64,000 nucleotides of DNA from Candidatus Latescibacterota bacterium (GCA_965205485.1 OZ242180.1:2784001-2848000), one strand, 5' to 3'; shown: positions 25,507 through 39,735, counted from the stretch's first letter. Translations and numbers: made by a program. The notes: a model not told the origin generated them from the sequence alone.

Positions 25507-27951
25507 ATGTCCCGAGAGCCAGAGACGAATGGGGCCGTCAGCCTGACCGTTCCCGTAACCGGGATGAGTTGCGCGGCCTGCGCCGCCCGCGTTCAGGACG
25601 GATTACGAAAAACCCGGGGTGTAGGCGAAGCGTCCGTCAACTTCGCCACGGGAGATGCCACCGTGCAGTTGAGAGACGGTGTGTCCGGCACGAAGCGGGT
25701 TGTTCGTGAAATCGAGAGTCTCGGCTATGGGATACGTACTGAAGAGACAAGACTTGCCGTGGGCGACATGAGCTGCGCCGCCTGCGTATCCGCAATAGAG
25801 AACGCGATAACGGGGGTACCGGGCGTCGTCGACAGCGAGGTCAACCTCGCGGCCCGTCAGGCCACGGTGCGGCATTTCGCGGTCCCGGATTCCGTTCTGA
25901 CGCGCGCGGTAATCGATGCAGGGTACGGCGCGACAGTAGTGGAACCGGACGCCTCCGCGGAGGAAGGAGAACGGAGGGAGGAACGATCGGAACGCCGTTC
26001 GATTCGATTGCGATTCATCGTCGCCGCGGTGCTGTCAACGTTGATCATGGGTGTGGGTATGCTGCACGAGTCACTGGGAGCGCCGTACTCTCTCCGGCAG
26101 GTCCACCTTCTGCTCTTCCTCCTGGCAACTCCCGTGCAGTTCTGGTGCGGCTGGCGCTTTCTAAGCGGGTTCTGGAGCGGCCTGCGGCGCAGGACCGCTG
26201 ACATGAACAGCCTTATTGCCGTCGGGACGCTGGCGGCCTATGGCTACAGCGTCGCGGGCACTTTTTTTCCCCGGTCCGTTGCTGGGCCCGGAGAGCCCGT
26301 CAGCGTCTATTTCGACACGTCGGCTATGATCATTACCCTCATCCTGCTGGGCCGGCTCCTGGAAATCCGGTCCCGCGGCCGCGCGACCGAAGCCATCCGT
26401 ACGTTGATGGATCTCCGGCCCGAGACCGCGTGTGTCCTTAGAAACGGCGAGGAGACGCTGGTTCCTGTAGAGGACGTCGCCGTCGGCGACCTCATTCGTA
26501 TTCGACCGGGCGACAGAGTCCCTGTAGACGGCGTGGTGCAGGAGGGGCAATCGAGCGTGGACGAGTCCGTGATAACGGGTGAGAGCATGCCCGTTGAAAA
26601 AGTCAGACAAAGCCGGGTTCTCGGGGCAACGCTCAACAAGACCGGGAGTTTCACATTCGCGGCCACACAGGTCGGCGCCGAAACGGTGCATGCCCGGATC
26701 GTTCAATTGGTTCGCCAGGCCCAGGGCTCGCGCGCGCCCGTTCAGCGGATCGCGGACCGGGTTGCCGGGGTCTTTGTGCCTGTCGTTTTCGGCGTCGCGT
26801 TGCTCACGTTCGCCCTGTGGTGGTCCGCCGGTTCCGGATCCGGCGCTTCCAACGCGCTGCTCAATGCCGTTGCGGTCCTCATTATCGCCTGTCCGTGCGC
26901 GCTGGGTCTGGCGACGCCAACGGCCATTCTGGTCGGCACCGGCCGGGCGGCGGAACTGGGTGTCCTCATCAAGGGAGGCTCTGTCCTGGAGACGGCCCAC
27001 CGCCTCGATACGATCGTCCTGGACAAAACCGGCACCATCACTACCGGAAGACCTGCGGTAACCGATCTGGTGACGACAGGTACACGTTCGGAATCGGATC
27101 TGCTCAAATTGGCGGCGTCCGTCGAACAAGGTTCCGAACACCCCCTCGGAGAAGCCATCCGCGACGCGGCGCGGGAACGGAAACAGCCCGTTGAAGAACC
27201 TCTCGAATTTGAAGCCCTGCCCGGGCAGGGCGTGCGCGCAAAAAAGGCCGGCCGCACCATCCTTCTGGGCAACCGGCAGTTGGTGGAAAGCCAGGCCGAA
27301 TTGACCGATGACCTGGATGCGAAGGCGGCGCGTCTGGAAACCGCCGGCAAAACAGTCCTGTTCGTGGCCGTAGACGATCAGGTGGAAGGCCTCATCGGCG
27401 TGGCCGACGTCCTCAAGCCCGATGCCGTTCGCGCCGTCGCCGATCTCAAGTCACTTGACCTGACCGTCATCCTCCTGACGGGAGACAACGCAAGAACCGC
27501 CGTAGCCGTCGCGGAACACGCGGACATTCACCGGGTCATTGCCGGGGTCATGCCCCACGAAAAAGCCGCCCGAATCGAGGAATTGCAGGAAAAGAGACAT
27601 TGTGTGGCCATGGTCGGAGACGGCGTCAACGACGCGCCCGCCCTGGCGACCGCCGACGTCGGCATTGCCGTCGGCACCGGGACGGCCGTGGCGATGGAAA
27701 GCGCGGACATCACCCTCATGTCCGGTAGCCTCACCGGAATAGAGGCCGCGATCCGCCTGTCGGGGCGGACCATGCGCACGATTCGACAGAACCTCTTCTG
27801 GGCGTTTGCCTACAACGTACTGCTGATTCCGGTGGCGGCTCTCGGCCTGCTCAACCCGCTCGGAGGGCCCATGGTGGCGGCTGGCGCGATGGCGCTGAGT
27901 TCCGTCTCCGTGATCTCGAATTCGCTCCGGATCAGAAAATTCATGCGATAG
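25507..27951 (+). CDS. copA: Cu(I)-translocating P1B-1 ATPase with two HMA domains
   Basis: Two MSCAAC motifs, [31 protein letters not shown] and MALSS. Confidence 0.94.
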
Positions 27952-28050: not shown

Positions 28051-29175
28051 TCACCGATTTTTCTTCGCGTACGCAAGGATGCCGTTAACGATCTTTTTCG
28101 CGTGGTGCTGCCGGTTCTTGTGATACCGGATTCGATAGGCCTCGTTCTCGTGGTGGACGTTGTGAACTTCAACGAGAATTTCGGCGTGGGCCTGATTATT
28201 CCGCAATACCGCCAGGTTCCGCCCCCGGATTTTAGCGGGGAGGTTCGGCTGGTGCAGGACCGAACGCATGACGCGAGCCAAATACCTGGAACGGCTGTCA
28301 ATTCTGCCCCGCCGTTTATGGTAGATTACCAGCGGACCCTTCGGGCGCCCGGGAGTGTTGTCCGCGTGCAGCGAAACAAACAGACTCCTGCCCCTTCGCG
28401 CTCCCTTTACGAAGCGGTTCGTCACCCGGACTCGCTGTGAAATATTGGCGCTTCTGGGCCGCACCTTTTCCGAATTCCTCCGGTTGTACCGCTCATCGTT
28501 GTAGACTTCGTTCTTTTCGTGCACGAATGTCGTTTTGGCCGGCAGGTTGTCGCGGATCAGATGATTGGGGCTGATCACCGTCAATGTCACCTCCGCGCCG
28601 AGCAGCCTGAGTTCTTTGAACATTCGCAACGCAATGTCGTACACGTATTCATCTTCGACCACGTAAACCCGCTGTTTCTTGCCTGCCAGGTTGGACACGA
28701 TGGCGCCCGGGTCGATTCCTCCGTGCCCGGGGTCGAGCACGATCCGCCATCCCTTCAGTGGTTTCCTTCTCTTCCTGGGCGCCTTGGCGAGAATCTCGTT
28801 GTCGAAGGCGCGCAACAGGATCTGGGCGCGTCGATAGTCCAGACCCGGGCTGGTTCGCGCCCTTTCGGAGTAGTTGCGATGCCTTTGCCTGCTCGCTTTC
28901 GGCTTTTGCCAGTAATATGGTCCGTTCGGCGCGTTGTATTTGGTAATACGAGGTGTCAGACGGAGTACCTGACCCGGATAGACGTTGTTGGACCGCAGCT
29001 TGTTGATCCGCTTGATTGCCCTGATGCTGGTCTTGTATTTCCTGGCAATCGACCACAAGGAATCGCCCTTTCGGACCTTGTGGACCAGCGAGAGTCCGGC
29101 GAGGGGACTTGCCAGCAGCAAGACCACGCAGAGCCCGGCGCTCAGAAGTCGCAAGAATCGAAGCTTATCCATCAT
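28051..29175 (-). CDS. N-acetylmuramoyl-L-alanine amidase (Amidase_3) with a LysM domain
   Basis: Signal peptide; HKVRKGDSLWSIARKY LysM; LDPGHGG...E, SLHAD and LVE zinc/catalytic motifs. Confidence 0.88.
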   Translation of the reverse strand: MMDKLRFLRLLSAGLCVVLLLASPLAGLSLVHKVRKGDSLWSIARKYKTSIRAIKRINKLRSNNVYPGQVLRLTPRITKYNAPNGPYYWQKPKASRQRHRNYSERARTSPGLDYRRAQILLRAFDNEILAKAPRKRRKPLKGWRIVLDPGHGGIDPGAIVSNLAGKKQRVYVVEDEYVYDIALRMFKELRLLGAEVTLTVISPNHLIRDNLPAKTTFVHEKNEVYNDERYNRRNSEKVRPRSANISQRVRVTNRFVKGARRGRSLFVSLHADNTPGRPKGPLVIYHKRRGRIDSRSRYLARVMRSVLHQPNLPAKIRGRNLAVLRNNQAHAEILVEVHNVHHENEAYRIRYHKNRQHHAKKIVNGILAYAKKNR

Positions 29176-29244
29176 TGTTGTTATCCGCTGAAGCACGAGT
29201 AGACCCACGGGCGCACCTGCCCGTATCTCGAGAGAGTACTCCAG

Positions 29245-29273: not shown

Positions 29274-29427
29274 GTCGGCTATGGCTGTGAACGAGCCTCT
29301 GGAGCCGATACAAGTCGGTTGTTTTCGCCTTGCGTTCGGTGTATTTCACCAATAATTGTTGACAATCATTCATCGAAATGAAATATAAATCGCTAAATAA
29401 CAGTTATTTATATGGTTTTTTGTGATT

Positions 29428-29444
29428 CGGGCACGGTCCTTGCG
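29428..29444 (+). promoter_or_regulatory. sigma54 (-24/-12) promoter upstream of pspA
   Basis: cgGGCACggtccTTGCg equals GGCAC-N5-TTGC with exact spacing, preceded by an AT-rich tract. Confidence 0.8.
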
Positions 29445-29537
29445 TTATGTGGTCGGCAGATCGGCGGATGAGTGTCTGAATCCGGATTTTTTAACCGTGG
29501 CGGGCTACGGACACCCGCAAGAGAAAGGAGTACGACG

Positions 29538-30215
29538 ATGGCCAAGGGGATATTCTCCAGAATGGCTGACATCATCAAGGCCAACATAAACGACCTTCTG
29601 AATCGCGCGGAAGATCCGGAGAAGATGATCCGGCAGATGATCCTCGAAATGGAGGAGGCCGTTAACAAGGCGACGGCGTCCGTCGGGACGGCCGTGGCCA
29701 ACGAGAAACGTCTGGAGCGTCAGCTTCTGGACAAGACGGACCAGATCGAGGCCTGGCAGAAGAAGGCGGAACTGGCCGTGGAATCCGGCGAGGACGATCT
29801 GGCCAGGCGCGCTCTGGAACGAAAGGCCACGCTGGAAAAAGCCGCCGGGGATCTGGAAGCCGCGTTCGACGAGAGCCACAAGACCTCCGATCAGCTCAAG
29901 AAACAGCTTGGGCAGCTCAAGTCCAAACTGGACGAAGCACGCACCCGTCAGGGCGCGCTGATCGCGCGGCGACGCGCCGCTCAGGCTCGGAAGCAGATCG
30001 CCCAGGGCATTTCGGGCGTCGGTGACGACGCCTTTTCCAGCTTCGAACGCTTTCGCAGCCGGGTTGAGAATGAAGAAGCCGAAGCTTCCGCTCACGCGGA
30101 AATTGCCGGTGAAGATCCCTCGCTGGACGATACGTTCGAAAAACTGGAACGACGGAACACGGTGGAAGACGAACTCGAGGCGCTGAAGAACAAACTGCGC
30201 AAATCCGATGCGTGA
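29538..30215 (+). CDS. pspA: Phage shock protein A (PspA/IM30, ESCRT-III superfamily)
   Basis: GIFSRMADIIKANINDLLNRAEDPEKMIRQMILEME, EDDLARRAL and EDELEALK; RBS AAGGAG. Confidence 0.95.
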   Translation: MAKGIFSRMADIIKANINDLLNRAEDPEKMIRQMILEMEEAVNKATASVGTAVANEKRLERQLLDKTDQIEAWQKKAELAVESGEDDLARRALERKATLEKAAGDLEAAFDESHKTSDQLKKQLGQLKSKLDEARTRQGALIARRRAAQARKQIAQGISGVGDDAFSSFERFRSRVENEEAEASAHAEIAGEDPSLDDTFEKLERRNTVEDELEALKNKLRKSDA

Positions 30216-30849
30216 ATTTCGAAAAATCCTGGACGAAATCGCGTACGAGATCGACAGGACAATGCGCGACGCAACAGAGGCATGGCGTGATTTCAAGATG
30301 ACCCGACCCGCGCGGCAAGAGCCGGGAAGGGTTCGTCACCCCCGTTCGCGTCGGCTGTCCTTCCGATTCTCCGATCTGGCCACTGACGGGAGTTGTGCTA
30401 TGCGATACGCCTTCGCGCTGCTACTGAAAGTCACAGCGATTCTGTTCGTTTTCGGCGGTCTGATGGGCATAGTCTATTCCGGCTTCCGGTCGTCCGGTTT
30501 CATCCTGAACCCCCTTGACATTGTCATGGGTATCGCCGTAATCTCGTTCGCGCTGGTTTTCTGGCTGGCCGGCCGAAAGGTCCAGGTGTCGGCCGAGCAC
30601 AAGCGGTACGCGCAGTATCAACACCGCCTGCTCAGGCTCGCACGCGAGAAAGGCGGCAGCCTCACCGTTCTGGAGGCGGCTACGGACGGGAGGATGACCG
30701 TGGGAAAGGCAGAAGAGATCCTCGGTGCATTGGCCGTCGGCGGCAGCGCCGAGGTTCGGGTGTCAGAGTCCGGTCTCGTTGTGTATCACTTTCCCGAGAT
30801 TGAACATGGATCCGAAAAAACCCGGGCGAAACCGGTGTATGAACTTTGA
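30208..30849 (+). CDS. Two-TM membrane protein with a C-terminal winged-helix-like domain
   Basis: Overlaps the pspA stop; two hydrophobic segments followed by LLRLAREKGGSLTVLEAA...AEEIL...VSESGLVVYHFPEI. Confidence 0.72.
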   Translation: MREFRKILDEIAYEIDRTMRDATEAWRDFKMTRPARQEPGRVRHPRSRRLSFRFSDLATDGSCAMRYAFALLLKVTAILFVFGGLMGIVYSGFRSSGFILNPLDIVMGIAVISFALVFWLAGRKVQVSAEHKRYAQYQHRLLRLAREKGGSLTVLEAATDGRMTVGKAEEILGALAVGGSAEVRVSESGLVVYHFPEIEHGSEKTRAKPVYEL

Positions 30850-30876
30850 TACATTCGAAAATCACGGAGGGATGTC

Positions 30877-31092
30877 ATGTTTGAAGTCGGTATTGGCGTT
30901 GCGCTGATCGTCCTTGCCGTGGCGGTCCTCAAATACGTGGAGCGGCAGACAAAGGGTACCGTCCCCGGTAAGGTCGAGGAACGCCTGAATGCCCGGCTGG
31001 ACGACCTTGACAGGAGACTGACCGATATCCAGGAAATCATGATCGCGATCGACGAAAAGCTGAATCGCCAGGACTCGGGAGGCGCGTCGTGA
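30877..31092 (+). CDS. Small single-TM protein with a PspB-like coiled-coil tail (paralog 1)
   Basis: RBS GGAGGG; TM EVGIGVALIVLAVAVL; tail RLDDLDRRLTDIQEIMIAIDEKL. Confidence 0.78.
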   Translation: MFEVGIGVALIVLAVAVLKYVERQTKGTVPGKVEERLNARLDDLDRRLTDIQEIMIAIDEKLNRQDSGGAS

Positions 31093-31175
31093 ATCGCGCC
31101 AGGTTCACCGGATTACCTGAAGCGCGATCGGCCAGTATCAGAATCATATCTGCTCAAGAAACGGGGCGTTGAATC

Positions 31176-31550
31176 ATGAACACACAGCACATTCACGTCG
31201 GCGAGCGGATTCAGGGTGGGACGGCCGTTGTCACCATCAGCGGCGATCCGATCGCCCTGCCGGAGGTGGCGCCGCTCCGACGCGAAATATCGAACCTTGT
31301 AAACGGAGGCGCTCGCACCGTCGTGGTCGACCTTTCACGCGTGAACCACATGGGCGCCGCCATGCTTGGTGAACTGGCGAGGGGCATTAAAGCCACCCGA
31401 GACGCCGGAGGCGACCTGAGGTTGAGCGGCGTTTCCCGTCGTATCCGAAGAGTCCTCGCATTGACAGGACTCTCTCGATTCTTCAAGCAGGCCGAGATTG
31501 GAAACGGTACGACGGAAGCCGCCAGCCGAAACGTCAAAAAAGTGGCTTGA
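31176..31550 (+). CDS. STAS-domain protein (anti-sigma factor antagonist-like)
   Basis: VVTISG, VVVDLSRVNHMGAAMLG, GGDLRL and VLALTGL. Confidence 0.85.
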   Translation: MNTQHIHVGERIQGGTAVVTISGDPIALPEVAPLRREISNLVNGGARTVVVDLSRVNHMGAAMLGELARGIKATRDAGGDLRLSGVSRRIRRVLALTGLSRFFKQAEIGNGTTEAASRNVKKVA

Positions 31551-31615
31551 GACTTCAAATCGTCGGAATGCCGTCGCCACACAATCAAACGCGGGGACTT
31601 CAGAGGAGGGAAAGT

Positions 31616-32191
31616 ATGAGTTGGATTCTGGAACTGGCGTTGGCGCTTTGCCTGCTGATCGTTGCGGGTGGATACTCCGTTTATCTGATGACTCCCGGCA
31701 ACAAGAAGCCCAGTGGATCCACTGTGGGGATTTTCCTGGCGGTGGCGGCCGTCGGTTTCGTTGTCTGGGCATTCACGTCGGAACGGTGGAACCTGCTTCC
31801 TGGCGCCGAAGACATTCCCACTATTACCCTGACCGGCAATACCGCCGGTCTAACGGGTGAAAGCGTGAGACTATTTCTGGAAAATCAGAGACGCCTGGAG
31901 TCAACTGCCGGTAAACTCGAGGACGTCGCAGACCGTCTCGAGTTGGCGCAATCCGGAACAGGTCTGGGCATTGCGATGGAGATCGGCATTGGGATCTGTC
32001 TGATCATTTTCGCCGGGGGCCTTGTGAGCTATATACACCTCAGAAAGAAGAGGGAAGGCAAGGGGATGAGTCCCGAACGGGCCAAGCGAATGGAGTCGCG
32101 GCTGGACGCCGTGGACCAGCGGCTGAACGACCTCCAGGAAGTGATCATCACCCTGGATGAAAGGCTCAGGCGAGGCAAAACCAACGTCTGA
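31616..32191 (+). CDS. Three-TM membrane protein with a PspB-like coiled-coil tail (paralog 2)
   Basis: RBS GAGGAGG; last TM EIGIGICLIIFAGGLV; tail RLDAVDQRLNDLQEVIITLDERL. Confidence 0.78.
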   Translation: MSWILELALALCLLIVAGGYSVYLMTPGNKKPSGSTVGIFLAVAAVGFVVWAFTSERWNLLPGAEDIPTITLTGNTAGLTGESVRLFLENQRRLESTAGKLEDVADRLELAQSGTGLGIAMEIGIGICLIIFAGGLVSYIHLRKKREGKGMSPERAKRMESRLDAVDQRLNDLQEVIITLDERLRRGKTNV

Positions 32192-32222
32192 ACAACGACT
32201 GCAAGCCAAAGGAGGGATCCTG

Positions 32223-32600
32223 ATGACCCGTGAGTTTATTACCAGAGGCGCAATCGTCTTTATCCTGATTTTGCTTGGAGCGGTAACGCTGAGGTTTTTC
32301 TTCGGCGACCCATTCATGCCCGGGAGTTCGCCACGCTTCGTGAGTTTCGCCATTGCTCTTGCACTGGGGATTCTGCTGATCGGCGGGACAGTCGCGGTGA
32401 CCGTGTTCGCCCTCGGCTACGTGATGATATATCTGAAGCGTCGGAACAGCGGCCAGACTCACGGATTCGAAACGAACCAGACAGAAGCGTTCAAAACCCG
32501 GCTGAACGAAGTGGATCAACGCCTGACCGATGTTCAGGACATACTGATAACCATTGACGAGAAACTGAGCCGGTTGCAGGAAAACAGGAGCACGGGCTGA
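32223..32600 (+). CDS. Membrane protein with a PspB-like coiled-coil tail (paralog 3)
   Basis: RBS GGAGGG; hydrophobic segments followed by RLNEVDQRLTDVQDILITIDEKL. Confidence 0.78.
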   Translation: MTREFITRGAIVFILILLGAVTLRFFFGDPFMPGSSPRFVSFAIALALGILLIGGTVAVTVFALGYVMIYLKRRNSGQTHGFETNQTEAFKTRLNEVDQRLTDVQDILITIDEKLSRLQENRSTG

Positions 32601-32734
32601 TCATCGTCTCCATTCGAATCCGCCTCTGTACCGCGACGTCCGGGCGGACTCCAGGTCTTTCACGTAACTTTCAATCTAAACCGGAATGGCAGAGATAAAT
32701 CATCTGGCTACCGGAGAGTAGAAAGGACGGAACC

Positions 32735-32911
32735 ATGCTCGCGAAGATCCTCGGCATCATCCTTATCGCCATCGGCGCGTATCTCGGTATTTTCGAAGCG
32801 ATCAAGCTCATCGGCATGTCCCTGGAAATGGTGTTCTTGCTCCTTAAGCTGTTTGTGTCGTTTGTCCTGATTTACGTGGGTTACCGGCTGCTTACAGGAG
32901 AATCCAGATAA
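32735..32911 (+). CDS. 58-aa two-TM small membrane protein (PspG/LiaI-like topology); not in the ORF track
   Basis: RBS AAAGGA; MLAKILGIILIAIGAYLGIFEAIKLIGMSLEMVFLLLKLFVSFVLIYVGYRLLTGESR*. Confidence 0.72.
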   Translation: MLAKILGIILIAIGAYLGIFEAIKLIGMSLEMVFLLLKLFVSFVLIYVGYRLLTGESR

Positions 32912-32942
32912 TTGACCGACCATTAGAGAGGAAAACCAATAG

Positions 32943-33518
32943 ATGAAAAACGAACGGTATCTGGTCCGGAGGGCAATCGAAGGTGACGCGGCCGCCTTCG
33001 GCGTCCTGTACCGGGCCTGCCACGAACAGATCTACGCCACGATGGTGCGTCGAACAAGCGACCCTGAAACCGCACAGGATCTCGTACAGACCGCGTTTTT
33101 GAGGGCATATACGGCCCTTGGCTCCTATCGAGGCGATGCCGCGTTTGCCACCTGGCTCACCCAGATCGCCCTGAACGTCCACAAGTCCCACTTCCGCAAA
33201 CAGCAGGTGCGCCGTCGGTGGACAACGGTAACCGAAGATCCTGCCGCACTCGTGGAAGCCACGCGCGTGCCCGCCGCGGGCGAGAATCCTGAATCCACGG
33301 TCGAGCGAAACCAGCGGCGCGAACTCGTGAGAATGAGCATTCACGCATTGCCGGAAAGATATCGCGAAGTTATCTGGATGCGTTATGTTCGCGACTGGTC
33401 CTACGAGGAGATAACACGGGCGCTGCAGATTCCTATGGGGACGGTCAAGACATGGCTCAATCGCGGACGTTACCAGTTGAAGGGCGAATTCAGAAAGCGG
33501 GGACTGGTACCCTCCTGA
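32943..33518 (+). CDS. ECF RNA polymerase sigma factor (SigW/RpoE-like)
   Basis: GDAAAFGVLY, AQDLVQTAFLRAY, FATWL, LPERYREV, SYEEI and GTVKTWLNRGR. Confidence 0.92.
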   Translation: MKNERYLVRRAIEGDAAAFGVLYRACHEQIYATMVRRTSDPETAQDLVQTAFLRAYTALGSYRGDAAFATWLTQIALNVHKSHFRKQQVRRRWTTVTEDPAALVEATRVPAAGENPESTVERNQRRELVRMSIHALPERYREVIWMRYVRDWSYEEITRALQIPMGTVKTWLNRGRYQLKGEFRKRGLVPS

Positions 33519-33601
33519 GTTCGCGTGACTTCAAGTTCCGGACAATTCCAGTTTTGGTGCTCGAACGGGAGGTCTCAGCGCTTGCATTGGCGTCTCATTC
33601 G

Positions 33602-33661
33602 GGGCGAAAACTGTAGCCGAGCATCGTCCCGGCGCCAGGCACCGTGGGCGAAAACCGTAGC
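33602..33661. promoter_or_regulatory. 16-bp direct repeat pair, a candidate operator upstream of nfeD-flotillin
   Basis: gggcgaaaactgtagc (33602) and gggcgaaaaccgtagc (33646), 15/16 identical and 44 bp apart. Confidence 0.5.
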
Positions 33662-33794
33662 GATTTTGTATTGACGCAAAGAAGATTCTGTATCACATTT
33701 CGCGGCGCAAAGCGCTTTACCGATACAGACCGTTTTTCCGCGTACGGGAGATCGTCGTTGCAAACTCAAGGAGATCCGAAGAAGGGAGCCGGAT

Positions 33795-34391
33795 ATGGAT
33801 GCCTGGTGGATGGAACTGACCGTGCTCAATCAGATTTTCTACGTCATGGCGATTTTCTTCAGTGCGTTTTTCGTCTGGCAACTCCTGGCTGCCTTGCTCG
33901 GTCTCGGAGGAGGGGCGGACGCGGGGATCGCAGGAGATGCGAACTTCGGCGATACCGGGCCGGAGTTCAACGACGGTACGGTTGCCTCATTCAAGCTGCT
34001 GTCTATCCGGTCGCTCATTGCCTTTGGCATGCTGTTCGGGTGGGCGGGTGCCCTGTATCTCCAAAGAGGGATGGAAGTACGAACCGCCCTTGTCTACGCG
34101 CTTGTATGGGGCAGCGCGGGCATGGCGGTCGTGGCCTATTTCTTCCACGGTATCAGGCAGCTTACCGAAACCGGAAACGCAAGCCTTGATACGTGCGTAG
34201 GCACGTCGGGTGAAGTGTATCTGGATATTCCGGAAGGCGGCACGGGGCAGGTCCGGGTGATGGAGAGCGGGACGGTCGCGTACGTGACTGCCCGAGGAAA
34301 GAACGGCATGCCGGTCTCCGCCAGGACGCCCGTGCGCATTCTCCGGGTTGTGAGCGCAACCACGCTTGAGGTCGAGCCCCTGAAATCATGA
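33795..34391 (+). CDS. NfeD-like (YuaF/YqiJ-type) membrane protein with a C-terminal OB-fold
   Basis: TM segments followed by VGTSGEVYLDIP..GTGQV; lies directly upstream of flotillin. Confidence 0.82.
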   Translation: MDAWWMELTVLNQIFYVMAIFFSAFFVWQLLAALLGLGGGADAGIAGDANFGDTGPEFNDGTVASFKLLSIRSLIAFGMLFGWAGALYLQRGMEVRTALVYALVWGSAGMAVVAYFFHGIRQLTETGNASLDTCVGTSGEVYLDIPEGGTGQVRVMESGTVAYVTARGKNGMPVSARTPVRILRVVSATTLEVEPLKS

Positions 34392-34485
34392 GAAGCTGGA
34401 TCAACATGATATTTGCAGCCAGCGCGGATTTTCCCCGGGAAAGATCTCATTCAACGGTGCTATATTCAGTCGAGGAGGGATTGCA

Positions 34486-36000
34486 ATGGCAACCGAGACG
34501 ATTCTGACAATCATCCTGCTGTTGGTGGTGTTTCTTCTCTTCGTGACGTTTATTTCCCGGTACAAACGGTGTCCGTCCAACAAGATATTGGTCGTCTACG
34601 GGAAAACCGGAAAGGGTGCCGCAAAATGCGTCCACGGAGGCGCGGCCTTCGTTCTTCCGCTCCTGCAGGATTATGAGTATCTGGACCTGGAACCGTTTGT
34701 CGTTCCCATAGACCTGGACAACGCGCTTTCTCAGGAGAACATCCGTGTGTCCGTACCCACAACCGTCACCGCGGCGGTTTCCAATCAGGCGGGCGTGATG
34801 CAGAATGCGGCGATCCGACTCCTGGGCCTTTCCCGCGAACAGATCCAGAGCCAGGCGCAGGACATCATCCTGGGCCAGATGCGGGCGGTGATCGCCACCA
34901 TGCAGATCGAAGAAATCAACAGGGACCGGCAGGCGTTTATGTCCAAGGTCAATGAAGCCGTGTCAACCGAAATGGAGAAAATCGGGCTGGCCGTGATCAA
35001 TGTAAACATCAAGGATATCGAAGACGAAAGCGGCTATATCAAAGCCCTCGGTCAGAAGGCGGCCGCCGAAGCCATCAATCAGGCGGCAATCGACGTGGCC
35101 GAGCAGGAGAAAATGGGCAAGGTGGGTGTGGCCGAACGGGAACGAGACCAGCGTACGGACGTGGCCGCGGCGAATGCGGCCGCGGACATCGGCGAGGCCG
35201 AGGCCGCCAGGGACAGGCGCCAGCGGGTTGCCGCGCTGGAATCCGAGGCACAGATCGGGGAGGCAGAGGCCACCAGGAACAAACGCCAGATGGTCTCTGC
35301 CCTGGATGCGGAAGCGGTCCAGGCCGAGACGGAGGCCGATTCCAAGAAGGCCGGTTACATGGCGCAGCAGACCGTAGCCGAGGAGGTCGCGCGTCAGAAG
35401 GGACAGGAGGCCGCCAAGGCAGCCGACGGCGCCATCCGGGTCGCTCAGGAAAAGGCGGAAAGAGAGGCAGAGGACGCCCGGGCGCTACGCGAAGAAGCCC
35501 GCCTTAGAGCCGAAATCGTCGTAGAAGCCGAGGCGCAAAAGAAAAAGCTGGTTGTGCAGGCCGAGGCCGAGAAAGCCCAGAAAGCGCTTGTGGCGGAAGG
35601 CGAGGCCGCCGCGATTCTGGCCGAGCGACGGGCCGAAGCGGAGGGCACTCAGGCCATACTGGACGCCAAGGCCGAGGGATATAAGGAACTGGTTGCCGCC
35701 TGCGGCGGTAAAGACCAGGCTGCCGCAGCCTTCCTCATCGTCGAACGGCTGACAGAGGTCGCGGGCATTCAGGCCGAAGCCATTCAGAATATCCCGCTGG
35801 AGAAAATCGTGGTCTGGGACGGCGGCAACGGACAGGGAGGTATGTCCAACCTCGGTCAGCGTCTGATGGGCGCGATTCCTCCCATGCACGAACTGGCAAA
35901 GCTGGCAGGTCTGGAACTGCCGGAGTTTCTGGGCAGGTTGGCAGGCGGAGTGAATCCGGCGGACGGTAATGAAGACAAAACCGGAGAATCCTCCGGATAA
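34486..36000 (+). CDS. Flotillin family (SPFH/band 7) protein
   Basis: N-terminal TM, RYKRCPSNKILVVYG, GQMRAVIATM, EEINRDR and a long AEA-rich coiled coil. Confidence 0.93.
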   Translation: MATETILTIILLLVVFLLFVTFISRYKRCPSNKILVVYGKTGKGAAKCVHGGAAFVLPLLQDYEYLDLEPFVVPIDLDNALSQENIRVSVPTTVTAAVSNQAGVMQNAAIRLLGLSREQIQSQAQDIILGQMRAVIATMQIEEINRDRQAFMSKVNEAVSTEMEKIGLAVINVNIKDIEDESGYIKALGQKAAAEAINQAAIDVAEQEKMGKVGVAERERDQRTDVAAANAAADIGEAEAARDRRQRVAALESEAQIGEAEATRNKRQMVSALDAEAVQAETEADSKKAGYMAQQTVAEEVARQKGQEAAKAADGAIRVAQEKAEREAEDARALREEARLRAEIVVEAEAQKKKLVVQAEAEKAQKALVAEGEAAAILAERRAEAEGTQAILDAKAEGYKELVAACGGKDQAAAAFLIVERLTEVAGIQAEAIQNIPLEKIVVWDGGNGQGGMSNLGQRLMGAIPPMHELAKLAGLELPEFLGRLAGGVNPADGNEDKTGESSG

Positions 36001-36025
36001 ACCCGATTAGTCATGGAGTAACCTG

Positions 36026-37651
36026 TTGACCAAATCTGACATATCAGACAATGGTCCGGCGCCGTCCGACCGCATAAGTATCGTTCGGACCCTCCCGGAA
36101 TCCGCGAATGCAGACGCACGGAGGCACTGCCGCGACGGTGATTCCGCGTTGGAAACCGGGGACATGTCGAGAGCTGAAGCCGCTTACGCTTCGGCACTGA
36201 GTCACGACGCGGGCAACCTTCGTGCGCTCCACAACCTGGGTGTCGTCCACTATAGAAGGGGCAACTGGCAGCATGCGCTCGCAAGCTTCGAACGTGCGCT
36301 GGGCTTGACCCATGACAATTCGGACCTGTACTTCAAGATCGGTATGTGCCTGCTCAAGACGGGCGCAGATGGCGCGTCGGAGGCCTTCGAGTCCGCCATC
36401 GCGGGCAAGCCGGAACATCTTGAGGCGCGCTTTCAACTGGCGCTGTTGCGGGCGGAGGGCGCGGAATCGGGATCCAGGGGTCGGCAACAGGCGGTCGAAA
36501 TGCTCCGTTTTATTCTGGAGGCGGTGGATCGCGGCGTGCACTACGGCAACGTGGACGGTGCCTGCTTCCTGCTCGCCAGCTTTCTGGACGACCTTCCGGA
36601 GAACATCGAGGAAGCGATCGCTGTTTACCGTCGTGGTCTGGAAGCGAATCCGCTGTTCGCACCGGGTCACAACAACCTTGGCATCCTGCTCATGCAATCG
36701 GGTCAGACCCTTCAGGCCCTGGGTGCATTCAAGATAGCCATCCAGCTCGAGCCGGATTACGCGCTGCCCTACAGGAACCTGGCGCATCTCTTGTTCGATC
36801 ACAAGAGTTCAGCGCAGATGGAGCAGGAATATACAACCATCATCGAAGAATTCGGCGCAAAGGCTGCTTCGGTTCTGGCAAGGTTGTCCCTTGAGCTCAT
36901 CGACATGGGACGTGTGCAGGTGGGTGAGAGCCTGTACACGCGTGGCCACCAGATAAAGAACCTGATGGGTCTGGTCGGGAGCCGTACACGCAGGCTGATT
37001 CGAAGGAACCGGAAGGACAACACGGTGCTCGATGATCTAAGGGAAATCGCACGCGATCAGGAGCACATCTACGACCAGTGGGTCGCGTACCTGCGCAGCA
37101 TGAAGCAGGACCCGTTGAATCCCACACTGGTCGATATTCCACTGCTGTTGCGCAACATCAGAAAGACGGTCTCGAGCCGGACCGGTGGTACGTTGCTCCG
37201 CTTCGCATTCGAACCGCAGGTGCCCCAGGTCAAGGTCGACCCCGGAATGTTGCGTGAGGCGGTTACCAACCTGATTCTCAACGCACTGGACGCCGTAGAC
37301 GAGGATGGTGCGGTCACGGTACAGGCCGGCTACGACAATAAGCGGGCGTCGGTGTTCATCGAGGTGGAAGACAACGGGCCGGGCATATCCGAAGAAATCC
37401 AGGGTCGCATCTTCGATCCGGGGTTCTCAACCAAAGAAAAGGGCAATGGATTCGGCCTCAGCATCTGCTCGCGGATCGTATCCGCCCACAGGGGAAACCT
37501 GCGCATGATCAGCCGTCCGGGCGCCGGTGCCGTGTTTCGCATCGACATTCCAGTGGACTTCGAGCTCGTTTCCGAATCCGAAAGCATCGGCTGGAGCGGG
37601 GATCCGTTAGCTGCGTCCAGGCTGCCGCTGGCCGAGGAATTCATCGAGTAA
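36026..37651 (+). CDS. Soluble sensor histidine kinase with N-terminal TPR repeats
   Basis: TPR-like helices (ALHNLGVVHY, GHNNLGILL); H-box-like RGHQIKNLM; N box NLILNALDA; G1 DNGPGI; F box FDPGFSTK; G2 GNGFGL; no TM segment. Confidence 0.88.
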   Translation: MTKSDISDNGPAPSDRISIVRTLPESANADARRHCRDGDSALETGDMSRAEAAYASALSHDAGNLRALHNLGVVHYRRGNWQHALASFERALGLTHDNSDLYFKIGMCLLKTGADGASEAFESAIAGKPEHLEARFQLALLRAEGAESGSRGRQQAVEMLRFILEAVDRGVHYGNVDGACFLLASFLDDLPENIEEAIAVYRRGLEANPLFAPGHNNLGILLMQSGQTLQALGAFKIAIQLEPDYALPYRNLAHLLFDHKSSAQMEQEYTTIIEEFGAKAASVLARLSLELIDMGRVQVGESLYTRGHQIKNLMGLVGSRTRRLIRRNRKDNTVLDDLREIARDQEHIYDQWVAYLRSMKQDPLNPTLVDIPLLLRNIRKTVSSRTGGTLLRFAFEPQVPQVKVDPGMLREAVTNLILNALDAVDEDGAVTVQAGYDNKRASVFIEVEDNGPGISEEIQGRIFDPGFSTKEKGNGFGLSICSRIVSAHRGNLRMISRPGAGAVFRIDIPVDFELVSESESIGWSGDPLAASRLPLAEEFIE

Positions 37652-37654
37652 GTC

Positions 37655-39061
37655 ATGAACGCGCAAATCGTTGTCGCAGACGACCAGTCCGAAATCCTGG
37701 GCATGCTCACGCGAAGCCTTCAGGTGGATGGCCGGATCGTGAGGGCATTTCCCACCGGTAGAGAGGCCTTCGCGTATTTGCGAAAACACGTTTCGGACGT
37801 TGACATGGCGATTCTGGATATCGACTTTGGACAGGCCGAGCCGGACGGCCTCGAAATTCTCCGTCAGATTCGCGATCTCGCACCCGATCTGCCGGTGATC
37901 ATCCTCACGGGCAAGGGCACCGTGGAGAACGCCGTAGCCGCCCTGCGCATGGGCGCTTCCGACTTTATCGAGAAAGACTTCTATATTGAAGACCGGCTTG
38001 AACTCAGCCTTGAAAAACTCGACCGCGTACTTGCCGTGCTCAAGGAGAACGCTCGCCTCCAGGCCCGGGTTAAGGATCTGGATCGGGAGAACAGATTCTA
38101 CCGTGACGAATTCGGCAAGAAATACAGGACGGTAAACGCCAGCTCACAGATGCTGCGGATTATGCAACAGGCCGAGCGCATCGCTTCCATCCCCCGACCG
38201 GTCCTGGTCCTCGGCGAACCCGGAACCGGAAAGGAACTCGTGGCCGCCGCGATCCACTACGGTGGGGTACGAAGAGATCGTCCATTCGTCAAAGTCAACT
38301 GCGCCGCCCTTTCCGCCAACCTCCTGGAAAGCGAGCTCTTCGGCCATGAGAAAGGCGCCTTTACCGGAGCCACGGAAGCCCGGCCGGGCCGGTTTGAAGC
38401 GGCAAACGGCGGCACTCTGTTGCTGGACGAGATCGGCAACACCACGCCCGAGTTCCAGCAGAACGTCCTGCGCGCCATTGAATATCAGGAGATCCAACGG
38501 GTGGGCGGCGCCGCGCCGACCAGCGTGGACGTACGTATCATTGCCGCCACGAATGCCGACCTCGAGCGCGAGATCGTCGAAGGCCGCTTCCGGCAGGATC
38601 TGTACGACCGCCTGCGCTTCGAGATTATCCGCATTCCCCCCCTACGGGAGCGTCGTGAAGACATCCGGCCCCTCGCCGTATTTTTCGTCGAACAGATCGT
38701 CCGGGAGGTGCCGGGCCTGGAAGCGCGTCCGTTTTCGGAGAGCGCGCTGCGGATGCTGTTGGGCTACGCGTGGCCGGGAAACGTGCGCGAGCTTAAATTC
38801 GCTGTCGAACGCGCCGCCTGCATGGCCGTGGGTGCATCCATCGAGCCCCGGGACCTGCCGCCGGAGATCTCCAGCGGGGCCGCCGCTGCGCCCGGAGACG
38901 GGTTTGACGCCCAGGTTACGGCGTTTGAACTCGGCTTGCTCAGAGGCGCGTTGAGCCGCGCAAACTGGAACCAGCGCAAGGCCGCCGAGTCGCTCTGCTT
39001 GAGCTACGATCAGTTTCGTCACTTTTACAGGAAGTACGGACTTGCAGGAGAGAAATCCTGA
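37655..39061 (+). CDS. sigma54-dependent activator: receiver domain + PspF-like AAA+ domain + HTH
   Basis: REC (ADD, ILD, LTG, EK); [20 protein letters not shown] and WPGNVREL; PspF-like LRAIEY, ATNADL, DRLRF and [20 protein letters not shown]. Confidence 0.92.
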
Positions 39062-39130: not shown

Positions 39131-39318
39131 AGAAGTTGTCTTAAAATTCCCGGTGAGTTCCCGAGCGCGAGCGAAAAAGCGGCGGTTATGAGGCGCGAGG
39201 GGCGCGCAGCGCCGACGGGAAAATCCGCCCATATCTGTCTATACGGGTGGGTTTGACCAACGCCGACCGGCGCTTTTGCAGCCGCGCGAAGACCGCTGGA
39301 AATTTTAAGACAGCTTCC
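39131..39318. mobile_element. MITE-like element, copy B (188 bp), inverted relative to copy A
   Basis: Ends agaagttgtcttaaaatt and aattttaagacagcttcc; the arms match the reverse complement of 19332-19521. Confidence 0.85.
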
Positions 39319-39330
39319 AAGGAGACAGAT

Positions 39331-39735
39331 ATGTTCAAGGAACCGGACGTTATAGCGCTTACAACGGAGGTTCCGCTCAATCATATTTGGGATGTCCCGT
39401 CCAGCAGCCCGCTGATTGAGAAACGCAATCCGGGGGAAGGGCTGAAAGTCGGCGACATTGGCACGATTGTATATGTGCAGGGCAACGGGGAAGCACTCGA
39501 GGTTGAATTCCTGGGCCCGGAAGGCAACACGATAGGCGTTGCCACGATCTCGCCATCACAGGCCCGCTTGGCCACGGAAGAAGACCTCACTAACCGATCT
39601 CTTCCGGAAGAAGCTGACAGTGCGGCTCTATCACGGCCACAGGATAGATTTGGAAGGCCCAGTTCTTTGTCAGTACAGGAAGATCCCGAAAACTACAACA
39701 CGCAGGACACGAATCCGGACAACACGGAGGTGTAA
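39331..39735 (+). CDS. DUF4926-like protein
   Basis: DVIALT...GLKVGDIGTIVYV..NGEALEVEF..PEGNTIGVATI; RBS AAGGAG. Confidence 0.68.
   Translation: MFKEPDVIALTTEVPLNHIWDVPSSSPLIEKRNPGEGLKVGDIGTIVYVQGNGEALEVEFLGPEGNTIGVATISPSQARLATEEDLTNRSLPEEADSAALSRPQDRFGRPSSLSVQEDPENYNTQDTNPDNTEV

Follow-up and report, generated by a model that had tools for sequence, protein, structure and literature searches.

Predicted two-component control of a sigma-54-dependent pspA operon by a PspF relative in Candidatus Latescibacterota

PspA is a bacterial ESCRT-III-like membrane-repair protein. In the genome of an uncultured Candidatus Latescibacterota bacterium, open reading frame and family calls place pspA first among twelve co-oriented genes that end in a histidine kinase and a receiver-bearing relative of PspF. 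They occupy 29.3-39.1 kb of the window, the whole stretch of 64,000 nucleotides that was analysed (Table 1). The arrangement raises the question of what controls pspA here: docking of PspA on the activator, phosphorylation of the activator's receiver, or the ECF-type sigma factor encoded in the same locus. Judged from sequence, this is probably a sigma-54-dependent Psp operon whose PspF-related activator is under two-component control, not PspA docking.

Gene content of the locus and its conservation

Table 1. Predicted genes and regulatory elements of the pspA locus (positions in the window).
Feature	Position	Strand	Evidence
Upstream activator site 1 (predicted), GG-N9-CC palindrome GGTTGTTTTCGCC	29317..29329	+	
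Upstream activator site 2 (predicted), GGTGTATTTCACC, family consensus TGGTG-N5-CACCA	29338..29350	+	
Sigma-54-like -24/-12 promoter element, GGGCAC-N5-TTGCG	29429..29444	+	
pspA, 225 aa from ATG 29538	29538..30215	+	PF04012 E 1.8e-50
2-TM winged-helix membrane protein (TM2wH)	30208..30849	+	AlphaFold model, hydrophobic segments
71-aa protein, N-terminal TM and coiled coil, PspB-like build	30877..31092	+	
STAS-domain protein, accessory	31176..31550	+	PF01740 E 5.8e-13
214-aa ORF, coiled-coil-tail paralog, three TM-like segments	31547..32191	+	
147-aa ORF, coiled-coil-tail paralog, two TM-like segments	32157..32600	+	
58-aa hydrophobic 2-TM protein	32735..32911	+	
ECF-type sigma factor, accessory	32943..33518	+	Sigma70_r2 E 1.7e-15, r4_2 E 7.4e-15
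Sigma-70-like promoter upstream of nfeD, TTGACG, 18 nt, ACATTT	33671..33700	+	
Divergent NfeD/YuaF-like protein, three TM helices and beta-rich C-terminal domain	33795..34391	+	
Flotillin (SPFH/Band 7)	34486..36000	+	Band_7 E 1.1e-27
Soluble TPR histidine kinase	36026..37651	+	HATPase_c E 3e-23 and TPR families
REC-AAA+-HTH sigma-54 activator, PspF-containing clade	37655..39061	+	Sigma54_activat E 6.7e-63, Response_reg E 1.5e-20

The encoded PspA matched PF04012 (PspA_IM30) over profile positions 1-217 of 220 with 172 bits (cut-off 33.9), and TIGR02977 with 185 bits, under the cut-off of that model. Orthologs were found in 41/41 related genomes. The longest pspA reading frame (29472-30215) opens on a GTG at 29472, and the ATG at 29538 is the probable start. 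Relatives of the 214-aa ORF align only from residue 14-24, so its true start probably also lies later. For pspA and for the 214-aa and 147-aa genes alike, the real starts are probably downstream of the longest-ORF starts.

Synteny was counted over the 44 loci whose downstream sequence reached 9 kb or more; like all the related loci counted here, these are kin selected by PspA similarity, and the counts overstate independent support. Kinase and activator each accompanied pspA in 44/44 of these loci, as did the winged-helix protein (44/44), the coiled-coil protein being present in 43/44; all four occurred together with pspA in 43/44. Across 14 genomes, the kinase and activator were encoded downstream of pspA in 13 of 14 loci. 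Presence of the remaining genes was more variable, with ECF sigma in 42/44, nfeD-flotillin in 36/44 and STAS in 12/44 loci, and the most divergent versions of the locus carry none of these three. They are apparently later, accessory insertions into the operon. The 58-aa protein is also encoded in the ECF-less locus L076. Where nfeD-flotillin is missing, the kinase gene follows its preceding gene with no promoter-sized gap. The promoter before nfeD is conserved as TTGAC(G/A), 18 nt and a hexamer whose second base is A and whose sixth is T, and has equivalents in other genera. Given the accessory insertions and this sigma-70-like promoter, the twelve genes probably form two transcription units in the window's genus.

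The TM2wH gene starts ahead of the pspA stop, so that the two overlap, and the protein terminates with a near-invariant PVDEL. No Pfam family was matched by this protein. Two hydrophobic segments are present, and the AlphaFold model (mean pLDDT 73) displays a winged-helix fold at residues 148-195 (block pLDDT 82-90). The three coiled-coil proteins are paralogs, as the preliminary description had proposed, cross-matching at 35-42% identity. Alignment showed TM segment(s) and a conserved coiled-coil tail in each. Their order of an N-terminal TM segment, basic residues and a conserved helix is the PspB build. PF06667 (PspB) was matched by 0/25 family members at E up to 10. A comparison by hhalign with seven alphaproteobacterial PspBs gave a probability of 28% (E 6e-4, 30 columns), and for the coiled-coil protein the Atlas gave 0.90 to a cluster bearing the automatic name 'Phage shock protein B family'. 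The best PF06667 match in the genome sits outside the locus (E 0.11), with no PspB above cut-off genome-wide. The three paralogs thus look PspB-like in build at the sequence level. No PF04024 (PspC) match turned up anywhere in the genome (97% complete); the control search was positive in seven reference genomes. The lack of a recognisable PspC noted earlier is therefore upheld, but a lack of PspB/C-type sensing cannot be claimed, because the coiled-coil paralogs look PspB-like.

Flotillin was identified by Band_7 (97.6 bits, cut-off 23.6) and has an N-terminal hydrophobic segment; its match to the FloT equivalog NF058507 (E 7.4e-41, 140.7 bits) is far under the cut-off of 700. Assignment of its neighbor as NfeD is tentative: the window's copy had no Pfam match even at E 10, PF01957 was matched weakly by 14/20 orthologs (best E 0.0016), and a profile search of PDB sequences returned nothing. 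The low-confidence model (mean pLDDT 60; C-terminal domain block pLDDT 32-62) shows three TM helices followed by a C-terminal part rich in beta structure. An NfeD-like gene directly precedes flotillin in 36/36 loci having either gene.

The pspA promoter, the activator and the kinase

A -24/-12 element lies 60-140 nt upstream of the pspA ATG in 48/51 related loci with the first pattern used, and in 49/51 when its first base was left free. Its GG and TTGC are invariant, unlike the spacer. Paired GG-N9-CC palindromes, 21-22 bp apart, lie 88-135 nt upstream of the -24 GG. The pair is kept in 47/50 promoter regions (47/48 of those offering 200 nt or more), whereas 200 shuffled controls averaged 0.2 such regions and never exceeded 2 of 50. 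Of 193 sigma-54 matches genome-wide, 16 have at least one GG-N9-CC site, and the pspA promoter alone among those 16 has two. The genome also encodes rpoN (PF04552, E 6.3e-60).

The product of the last gene in the locus matched Response_reg, Sigma54_activat and AAA_lid_14. It has the receiver Asp, Walker A and GAFTGA expected of an NtrC-family response regulator, the Asp motif being kept in 44/44 orthologs; its C-terminal HTH matched HTH_8 weakly (18 bits, cut-off 22). The AAA+ domain aligned with solved PspF chains at 252-253 bits, and the protein scored 344 bits against TIGR02974, under the cut-off of 443.55. In an IQ-TREE phylogeny of 36 AAA+ domains, the Latescibacterota activators and eight receiver-less PspFs, all encoded divergently from pspA, formed one clade (support 100/100), with the 13 other activator paralogs of the genome falling outside it. 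FastTree analysis of 151 AAA+ domains, midpoint-rooted and with weak inner nodes (0.0-0.86), recovered the clade at 0.999, there also taking in other REC-type relatives. By its sequence, the activator is a PspF relative with a receiver and an adjacent soluble kinase.

Among 22 orthologs of that kinase, H308, N415/N419, D449-G451-G453 and G473-G475-G477 are invariant, covering the H, N, G1 and G2 residues. The HisKA Pfam model had no match in the kinase at E 0.01. No TM-like segment was seen, the highest 19-residue hydropathy being 0.97. The preliminary description had named the twelve co-oriented genes, the sigma-54 promoter, the TPR kinase and the REC-bearing PspF-like activator, and each was borne out on these data. 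Its expectation that kinase and regulator stay with pspA in relatives likewise agrees with the 44 loci, and extends to a distant, Kofleriaceae-labelled lineage that links TPR kinase, REC activator, PspA and ECF in a different gene order. Among loci of at least 7 kb in that lineage, the REC activator is followed by PspA in 34/34, the TPR kinase lies just upstream in 32/34 and an ECF sigma factor downstream in 28/34.

Possible control of pspA

We propose that the locus is an envelope-stress operon of Psp type, confined to a single class-level group within Latescibacterota. Its effector would be PspA, made with small inner-membrane partners: the 2-TM protein with its cytoplasmic winged-helix C-terminus, one to five PspB-like proteins and the 58-aa 2-TM protein, with the NfeD-like/flotillin pair added in the window's genus. 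Transcription of pspA would start from the sigma-54 promoter, with the REC-AAA+-HTH protein acting through the two tandem palindromes about 100 bp upstream. The adjacent TPR kinase is predicted to phosphorylate the receiver, and PspA would not inhibit the activator by docking on it. Since the kinase has no membrane segment, it would read membrane state indirectly, most likely through binding of its TPR-like domain to PspA or to those portions of the membrane partners that face the cytoplasm. A second-tier output may come from the ECF sigma gene, and the sigma-70-like promoter before nfeD may supply basal kinase and activator.

The W56 loop is the PspA contact on E. coli PspF, and PspF has been proposed to bind PspA at a second site as well (PMC6003685, available text). 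PspA could thus still restrain the activator through a surface other than this loop, with two-component input added on top; we regard such dual control as unlikely, though it is the strongest competitor. It fits the placement of the AAA+ domain in the PspF-containing clade, the 'HY' signature that the activator shares with classic PspFs ahead of the loop, the proposed second site and the first position of pspA in the operon, as in E. coli. Against it, Trp at position 56 is present in 11/11 classic, receiver-less PspFs but in 0/45 receiver-bearing proteins (the window's activator, which has Arg, and 44 orthologs), and an off-state would already follow from the intact receiver Asp together with a kinase of the activator's own.

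Kinase and activator might instead be mere neighbors of pspA that act elsewhere, one of the 13 other activators serving its promoter. Genome G016 (97% complete, one contig) could be read this way. It lacks the winged-helix protein, encodes neither kinase nor activator downstream of pspA and no activator ortholog genome-wide (best match 44% identity, vs 71% in congener G020), and still retains, upstream of pspA, a -24/-12-like CGGCAC-N5-CCTGC with a pair of GG-N9-CC sites spaced 21 bp apart. Either the promoter has therefore become a relic in G016 or it can be used by a different activator. In the Kofleriaceae-labelled lineage the linkage occurs with no local sigma-54 match: strict [CT]GG[CT]AC-N5-TTGC was found in 0/20 long loci when both strands were scanned across 10 kb to each side, and under a looser pattern neither the kinase gene nor pspA was preceded by a conserved site. 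A visible local target is therefore not always present where kinase and activator are linked to PspA. Another sigma-54 promoter of the window's genome (G000:C1:5013017, minus strand) bears one similar half-site. We nevertheless consider independent action improbable, given linkage in every long locus and again, in another order, in the second lineage, the fact that the activator's nearest characterised relatives are pspA regulators, and the occurrence of the double site at the pspA promoter alone. Least probable of all, and very much so, is that pspA and/or nfeD-flotillin depend chiefly on the ECF sigma factor of the locus. In B. subtilis, pspA and yuaF-floT are under SigW control, and the ECF gene is frequent both in this operon and after PspA in the second lineage. 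However, when the aligned regions upstream of pspA, the 58-aa gene and nfeD were read, no conserved promoter of ECF type (AAC ... CGT-like) was recognised, the element upstream of nfeD is sigma-70-like, and the most divergent loci L075, L076 and L079 lack the ECF gene and keep everything else. The earlier suggestion that sigma-54/PspF, ECF and two-component logics are merged here is thus only partly right: the first and last are supported by the sequence data, but no sign was seen of ECF control of pspA or nfeD-flotillin, and a sigma-70-like promoter precedes nfeD.

Comparison with known systems

The nearest known system is enterobacterial PspF/pspABCDE. In both, pspA leads the operon and is served by a sigma-54 promoter and upstream activator sites, small bitopic membrane proteins are encoded after pspA, and the activator AAA+ domain is of the same clade. 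In contrast to its enterobacterial counterpart, the Latescibacterota activator has a receiver and cognate kinase, lacks the W56 Trp and is encoded at the operon end, not divergently. The genome is also without PspC or a PspB above cut-off, and the 2-TM winged-helix partner has no enterobacterial equivalent. In architecture (REC, helical linker, AAA+, HTH) the activator resembles NtrC1/DctD-type proteins, and its best full-length solved matches are the NtrC-family regulators 4l4u and 1ny5, but its AAA+ domain groups with PspF and not with the other NtrC-type paralogs of the genome.

A PspA homolog tied to a kinase and regulator of the same operon is also seen in LiaRS-LiaIH of Bacillus and other two-component PspA loci. 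According to the available text of PMC11237479, LiaRS-type systems employ a membrane-bound kinase, a receiver-HTH regulator, sigma-70-type promoters and partners of the LiaF or Toastrack kind. In the Latescibacterota locus a TPR kinase predicted to be soluble stands beside a regulator of the sigma-54 AAA+ type, and LiaF, LiaI, Toastrack and PspC families were not found among the twelve locus proteins. PspA-flotillin-NfeD/YuaF/YqiJ neighborhoods likewise have a 3-TM NfeD-like protein before flotillin near pspA (PMC9239133 and PMC11237479, available text), and acidobacterial loci also pair flotillin with an NfeD-like protein near pspA. The Latescibacterota pair differs in being inserted in a larger regulated operon with its own sigma-70-like promoter. 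The proposed two-tier output, in which a sigma-54 activator would control an ECF gene, recalls HrpR/HrpS-sigma-54-HrpL of Pseudomonas syringae, although those activators lack a receiver and control a type III secretion regulon (PMC4145663, available text).

The arrangement, put forward as a new architecture in the preliminary description, is not described in the available text of two large Psp surveys (PMC11237479, PMC9239133), from which the word Latescibacter* is absent. It is not a wholly new kind, as the underlying Psp system is known. A pspA operon under sigma-54 is of a well-known type; the novelty is a PspF relative with a receiver and its own soluble kinase.

Gene content and conservation of the psp locus

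All twelve genes listed in the preliminary description were recovered by ORF and family searches, and that list proved right (table). The source genome, a single contig of 5.1 Mb estimated as 97% complete, encodes three PspA paralogs, of which only the copy in the window is linked to regulators. A second paralog (locus L098, G000:C1:1408500-1421000) belongs to a gene row CesT/Tir-PspA-DUF4178, and a spermine synthase is encoded ~1.6 kb away, on the opposite strand. Neighbourhoods of the CesT/Tir-PspA-DUF4178 type already appear in a section of PMC11237479.

Table. Genes, promoter elements and flanking features of the psp locus, in window coordinates
Feature	Position	Strand	Remarks
Heavy-metal P-type ATPase gene	25507-27951	+	Upstream
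LysM and amidase_3 cell-wall hydrolase gene	28051-29208	-	Upstream, divergent from pspA
Sigma-70-like match	29273-29245	-	Faces the amidase gene
Predicted upstream activator sites	29317-29329 and 29338-29350		AT-rich stretch separates sites from promoter
-24/-12 element	29429-29444		GGGCAC-N5-TTGC, before pspA
pspA	29538-30215	+	From ATG after AAGGAG; PF04012, E 1.8e-50
Winged-helix protein	30208-30849	+	213 aa; start overlaps pspA stop
Coiled-coil protein	30877-31092	+	71 aa
STAS protein	31176-31550	+	
Coiled-coil ORFs	31547-32191 and 32157-32600	+	214 and 147 aa
58-aa protein	32735-32911	+	
ECF sigma factor	32943-33518	+	
Sigma-70-like element	33671-33700		Before nfeD
NfeD-like protein	33795-34391	+	198 aa
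Flotillin	34486-36000	+	
TPR histidine kinase	36026-37651	+	
REC-AAA+ activator	37655-39061	+	
DUF4926 protein	39247-39735	+	186-nt gap after activator gene; then NAD-dependent epimerase gene

The locus is real and strongly conserved. Kinase and activator genes were found downstream of pspA in 13 of 14 loci from 14 genomes of the order. Among 44 related loci with at least 9 kb of downstream sequence, the winged-helix protein, kinase and activator were each present in all 44, with a coiled-coil protein in 43, the ECF sigma factor in 42, the NfeD-like protein and flotillin in 36 each, and the STAS protein in 12. The most divergent loci (L075, L076 and L079) comprised PspA, the winged-helix protein, one or more coiled-coil proteins, kinase and activator only, plus the 58-aa protein in L076. 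This content defines a core of PspA, membrane partners, kinase and activator, and suggests that ECF, nfeD-flotillin and STAS, missing from these loci, are later insertions. Where nfeD-flotillin was missing, no promoter-sized gap separated the previous gene from the kinase gene, and kinase and activator are there predicted to belong to the sigma-54 unit. The preliminary description had proposed a merger of three regulatory logics, sigma-54/PspF, ECF and two-component. This was overstated as regards ECF and nfeD-flotillin, which are accessory; control by sigma-54 and a two-component pair is supported comparatively.

The accessory and smaller proteins were inspected individually. The 58-aa protein was ruled out as an ECF-specific anti-sigma factor, as its gene also occurs in the ECF-less locus L076. 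By eye, the STAS protein has no serine at what we take to be the position phosphorylated in SpoIIAA-type antagonists. The 198-aa protein is NfeD-like by build and position and only weakly so by sequence: a weak PF01957 match was obtained in 14/20 orthologs (best E 0.0016) and none in the window's own copy. A PDB profile search with it returned 0 hits, and its structure model was too poor for a fold search.

The winged-helix protein carries two hydrophobic segments and a C-terminal helix-strand-helix-helix-hairpin winged helix (AlphaFold, 35 homologs, mean pLDDT 73; block pLDDT 82-90). Foldseek against the PDB returned generic winged helices only, with MarR and TFE best (E 4e-3) and ESCRT-II chains at ranks 28 and 45 (E ~2e-2 to 3e-2); given such generic matches, no specific fold kinship was drawn. 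The protein occurs in 102/168 genomes of the phylum, all in three of its families (20/21, 30/31 and 51/76 genomes), being absent from 39/39 genomes of the other eleven. None of 140 homologs in a large protein collection is assigned to a Pfam family, and any that are named are called 'hypothetical'.

No PspC was found in the 97% complete genome. In build, the three coiled-coil proteins resemble PspB. They share a TM segment and, after it, a helix that is strongly conserved (consensus RLTDIQDVMIxIDEKL), and belong to a family of 126 members in 49/52 sources, with one to five per locus. Matches to the PspB Pfam family were seen in 0/25 members, and a genome-wide PF06667 search gave nothing in the locus. 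Alignment to PspB by hhalign was weak (probability 28%), and an Atlas neighbour of these proteins is auto-named PspB family (0.90).

Promoters and the regulator-less locus of G016

Conservation of the -24/-12 element was assessed in 51 related loci retrieved by PspA similarity. It was present 60-140 nt before the pspA ATG in 48/51, or in 49 counting L030, which has A at the first position. The other two were L052, with a flank of 46 nt only, and L074, which also lacks synteny. GG and TTGC were fixed across the loci while the five spacer bases varied, as would be expected if the site is functional. The source genome encodes rpoN. A pair of GG-N9-CC palindromes (consensus TGGTG-N5-CACCA), 21-22 bp apart and 88-135 nt upstream of the -24 GG, was found in 47/50 promoter regions, compared with a mean of 0.2 and a maximum of 2/50 in shuffled controls. 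Two of the three regions without the pair comprised less than 75 nt of sequence.

Scanning the whole source genome gave 193 sigma-54 pattern matches, 16 with at least one GG-N9-CC site upstream; two such sites were found at the pspA promoter only. This genome-wide search for a sigma-54 match with an upstream site yielded no second convincing target. At G000:C1:5013017, outside the window on the minus strand, a good sigma-54 promoter (TGGCAC-N5-TTGCA) is preceded by an AT-rich stretch and a single GG-N9-CC site similar to site 1 of pspA, and is followed by a 472-aa ORF and then by ORFs of 388 and 235 aa. It is possibly a second target, or possibly an unrelated sigma-54 operon.

A second type of element was seen within the locus. 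Where nfeD-flotillin is present, nfeD is preceded by a conserved sigma-70-like element, TTGAC(G/A) followed after 18 nt by a hexamer whose second base is A and whose sixth is T. Predicted internal terminators numbered 9, fewer than the 10.2 expected from shuffles.

One related genome, G016 (97% complete), provided a counter-example. Its locus (L017, G016:C1:1005921-1019921) retains pspA, one coiled-coil gene and the gene for the 58-aa protein, and has lost the winged-helix protein, ECF, kinase and activator. No activator ortholog was found elsewhere in G016, the best match having 44% identity compared with 71% in a congener. A -24/-12-like element containing CCTGC is still present before its pspA, as is a pair of GG-N9-CC sites at a distance of 21 bp from each other. 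These elements may be a relic, or may be served by another activator.

The receiver-bearing activator and the adjacent soluble kinase

The activator combines a receiver, in which the acid pocket is present and the Asp motif kept in 44/44 orthologs, with an AAA+ domain bearing Walker A and GAFTGA; the match to a Fis-type HTH was weak. Among solved chains, the AAA+ domain scored 252-253 bits with E. coli PspF, ~255 with NifA, 235 with ZraR and ~211 with NtrC1. An IQ-TREE phylogeny of 36 AAA+ domains placed the Latescibacterota activators and eight receiver-less PspFs in one clade (100/100 support), with the 13 other paralogs of the source genome outside it. The genes for the eight PspFs, from proteobacterial and acidobacterial loci, diverge from pspA, and the two proteins that were domain-scanned showed AAA+ and HTH_8 with no receiver.

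The clade was also recovered (support 0.999, 42 tips) in a wider FastTree of 151 domains, including the best single-domain members of a set of 1.84 billion cluster representatives. Within it, the Latescibacterota group (15 tips, support 0.979) was accompanied by three receiver-type sisters, eleven other N-terminally extended relatives, two short proteins and 11 classic PspFs, the last monophyletic with support 1.0. Response_reg was detected at E ≤1e-5 in 10/14 of the extended relatives as against 0/5 of the short ones. The loop around W56 is the place where PspA docks on PspF, according to a passage in PMC6003685. The residue aligned to W56 is Arg in the window's activator, and was Trp in 0/45 receiver-bearing Latescibacterota proteins compared with 11/11 classic PspFs.

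Across 22 orthologs of the adjacent kinase, H308 (the DHp histidine) was invariant, as were the residues of the N, G1 and G2 boxes. No TM-like segment was detected in the kinase, and its sensor would therefore have to work by contact between proteins. Within its N-terminus, conservation is highest over region 132-300, which has TPR-like repeats. Orthologs from genus g6 (L053-L073) are ~420 aa long; residue ~132 onward is kept, and the ~130 residues before it, with the N-terminal TPRs, are missing. The extreme C-termini of the winged-helix protein (near-invariant ...ARPVDEL) and of the kinase (conserved ...AEEFI) are side observations of note here: conserved termini adjoining a TPR protein suggest contact of the peptide-in-groove type. 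Binding of the conserved PVDEL C-terminus by the kinase TPR region was probed by complex prediction with kinase 1-300 and winged-helix residues 125-213. The score of 0.01 against a mark of 0.32, obtained without controls, counts as evidence neither way.

A second lineage and comparison with known Psp systems

Related gene sets were also retrieved from a distant group, using as probe P0155, a receiver-type clade member whose 90%-identity cluster includes two NCBI members labelled Kofleriaceae and some JGI members auto-named PspF. Of the 80 metagenome loci obtained, 34 were at least 7 kb long, and all 34 had the order TPR kinase, REC activator, PspA; the kinase was seen in 32, and the remaining two begin at the activator. 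PspA usually starts within 60 nt of the activator end, and an ECF sigma factor follows PspA in 28/34. The second-lineage kinase aligns with the window's kinase from residue ~164-181 to 511 at 29-34% identity. This lineage thus independently supports the view that the kinase, activator, PspA and ECF families would work together. The strict sigma-54 pattern [CT]GG[CT]AC-N5-TTGC was found in 0/20 long second-lineage loci (either strand, 10 kb each side), and a looser pattern gave no conserved site before kinase or pspA.

The fuller gene order in L102 and 33 other loci is TPR kinase, REC activator, PspA, a 139-aa gene, ECF and a 453-aa protein. The 453-aa protein has an anti-sigma-like appearance and no Pfam family. 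The product of the 139-aa gene was considered as a relative of the winged-helix protein and found to be unrelated (hhalign probability 0.3%).

The argument for rewiring rests at its core on three features: a receiver with its phospho-acceptor, an adjacent cognate kinase, and no PspA-docking residue on the activator. Comparative sequence evidence well supports a sigma-54 Psp operon in which a soluble kinase of its own and a PspF relative with a receiver would act as the switch. This would be a differently wired version of a known Psp system, and not a new kind of system. A broader reading, which we offer tentatively and consider rather unlikely, is that a widespread and so far undescribed class of two-component Psp systems exists. 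It would unite a PspF-clade REC activator, a soluble TPR kinase and PspA, often with an ECF factor, in at least two distant lineages, Latescibacterota and the Kofleriaceae-labelled group. The receiver-less, PspA-titrated proteobacterial PspF would then be a derived offshoot in which the receiver was lost and the W56 docking loop acquired. In Latescibacterota, the membrane-anchored winged-helix protein and the PspB-like proteins would replace PspB/PspC and link membrane, PspA and kinase.

To our knowledge, PspA/Vipp1/ESCRT-III proteins are universal membrane-repair machinery, and the sensing of membrane damage and the switching-on of PspA are understood in only a few model bacteria. The locus pairs this familiar effector with different wiring and with membrane partners of no described family, and its small protein set suffices to test the sensor question. 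An evolutionary corollary concerns the origin of receiver-less PspF: if the classic protein is truly nested among receiver-bearing relatives, there would be a concrete route to this 'unconventional' domain-less activator. The advance for the field is incremental, and the comparative support is good.

Sections of PMC11237479 cover PspF variants with ACT/PAS domains, LiaRS-type two-component contexts, in which a membrane kinase is paired with a receiver-HTH regulator, and PspA-flotillin-YuaF/YqiJ operons. Passages in PMC9239133 have PspF described in Enterobacteriaceae only, and PspA-Band7-NfeD contexts in Acidobacteriota. 'Latescibacter' is absent from the text of both papers, and a literature text search found no paper with both 'Latescibacter' and 'phage shock'. 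PspF is grouped with activators without a signal domain in a portion of PMC3162934, and Desulfovibrio PspF is given as single-component in a portion of PMC4641369. The classic PspF system is controlled by PspA titration; here, by contrast, the same sigma-54/PspF-type engine is proposed to be switched through phosphorylation by a soluble TPR kinase.
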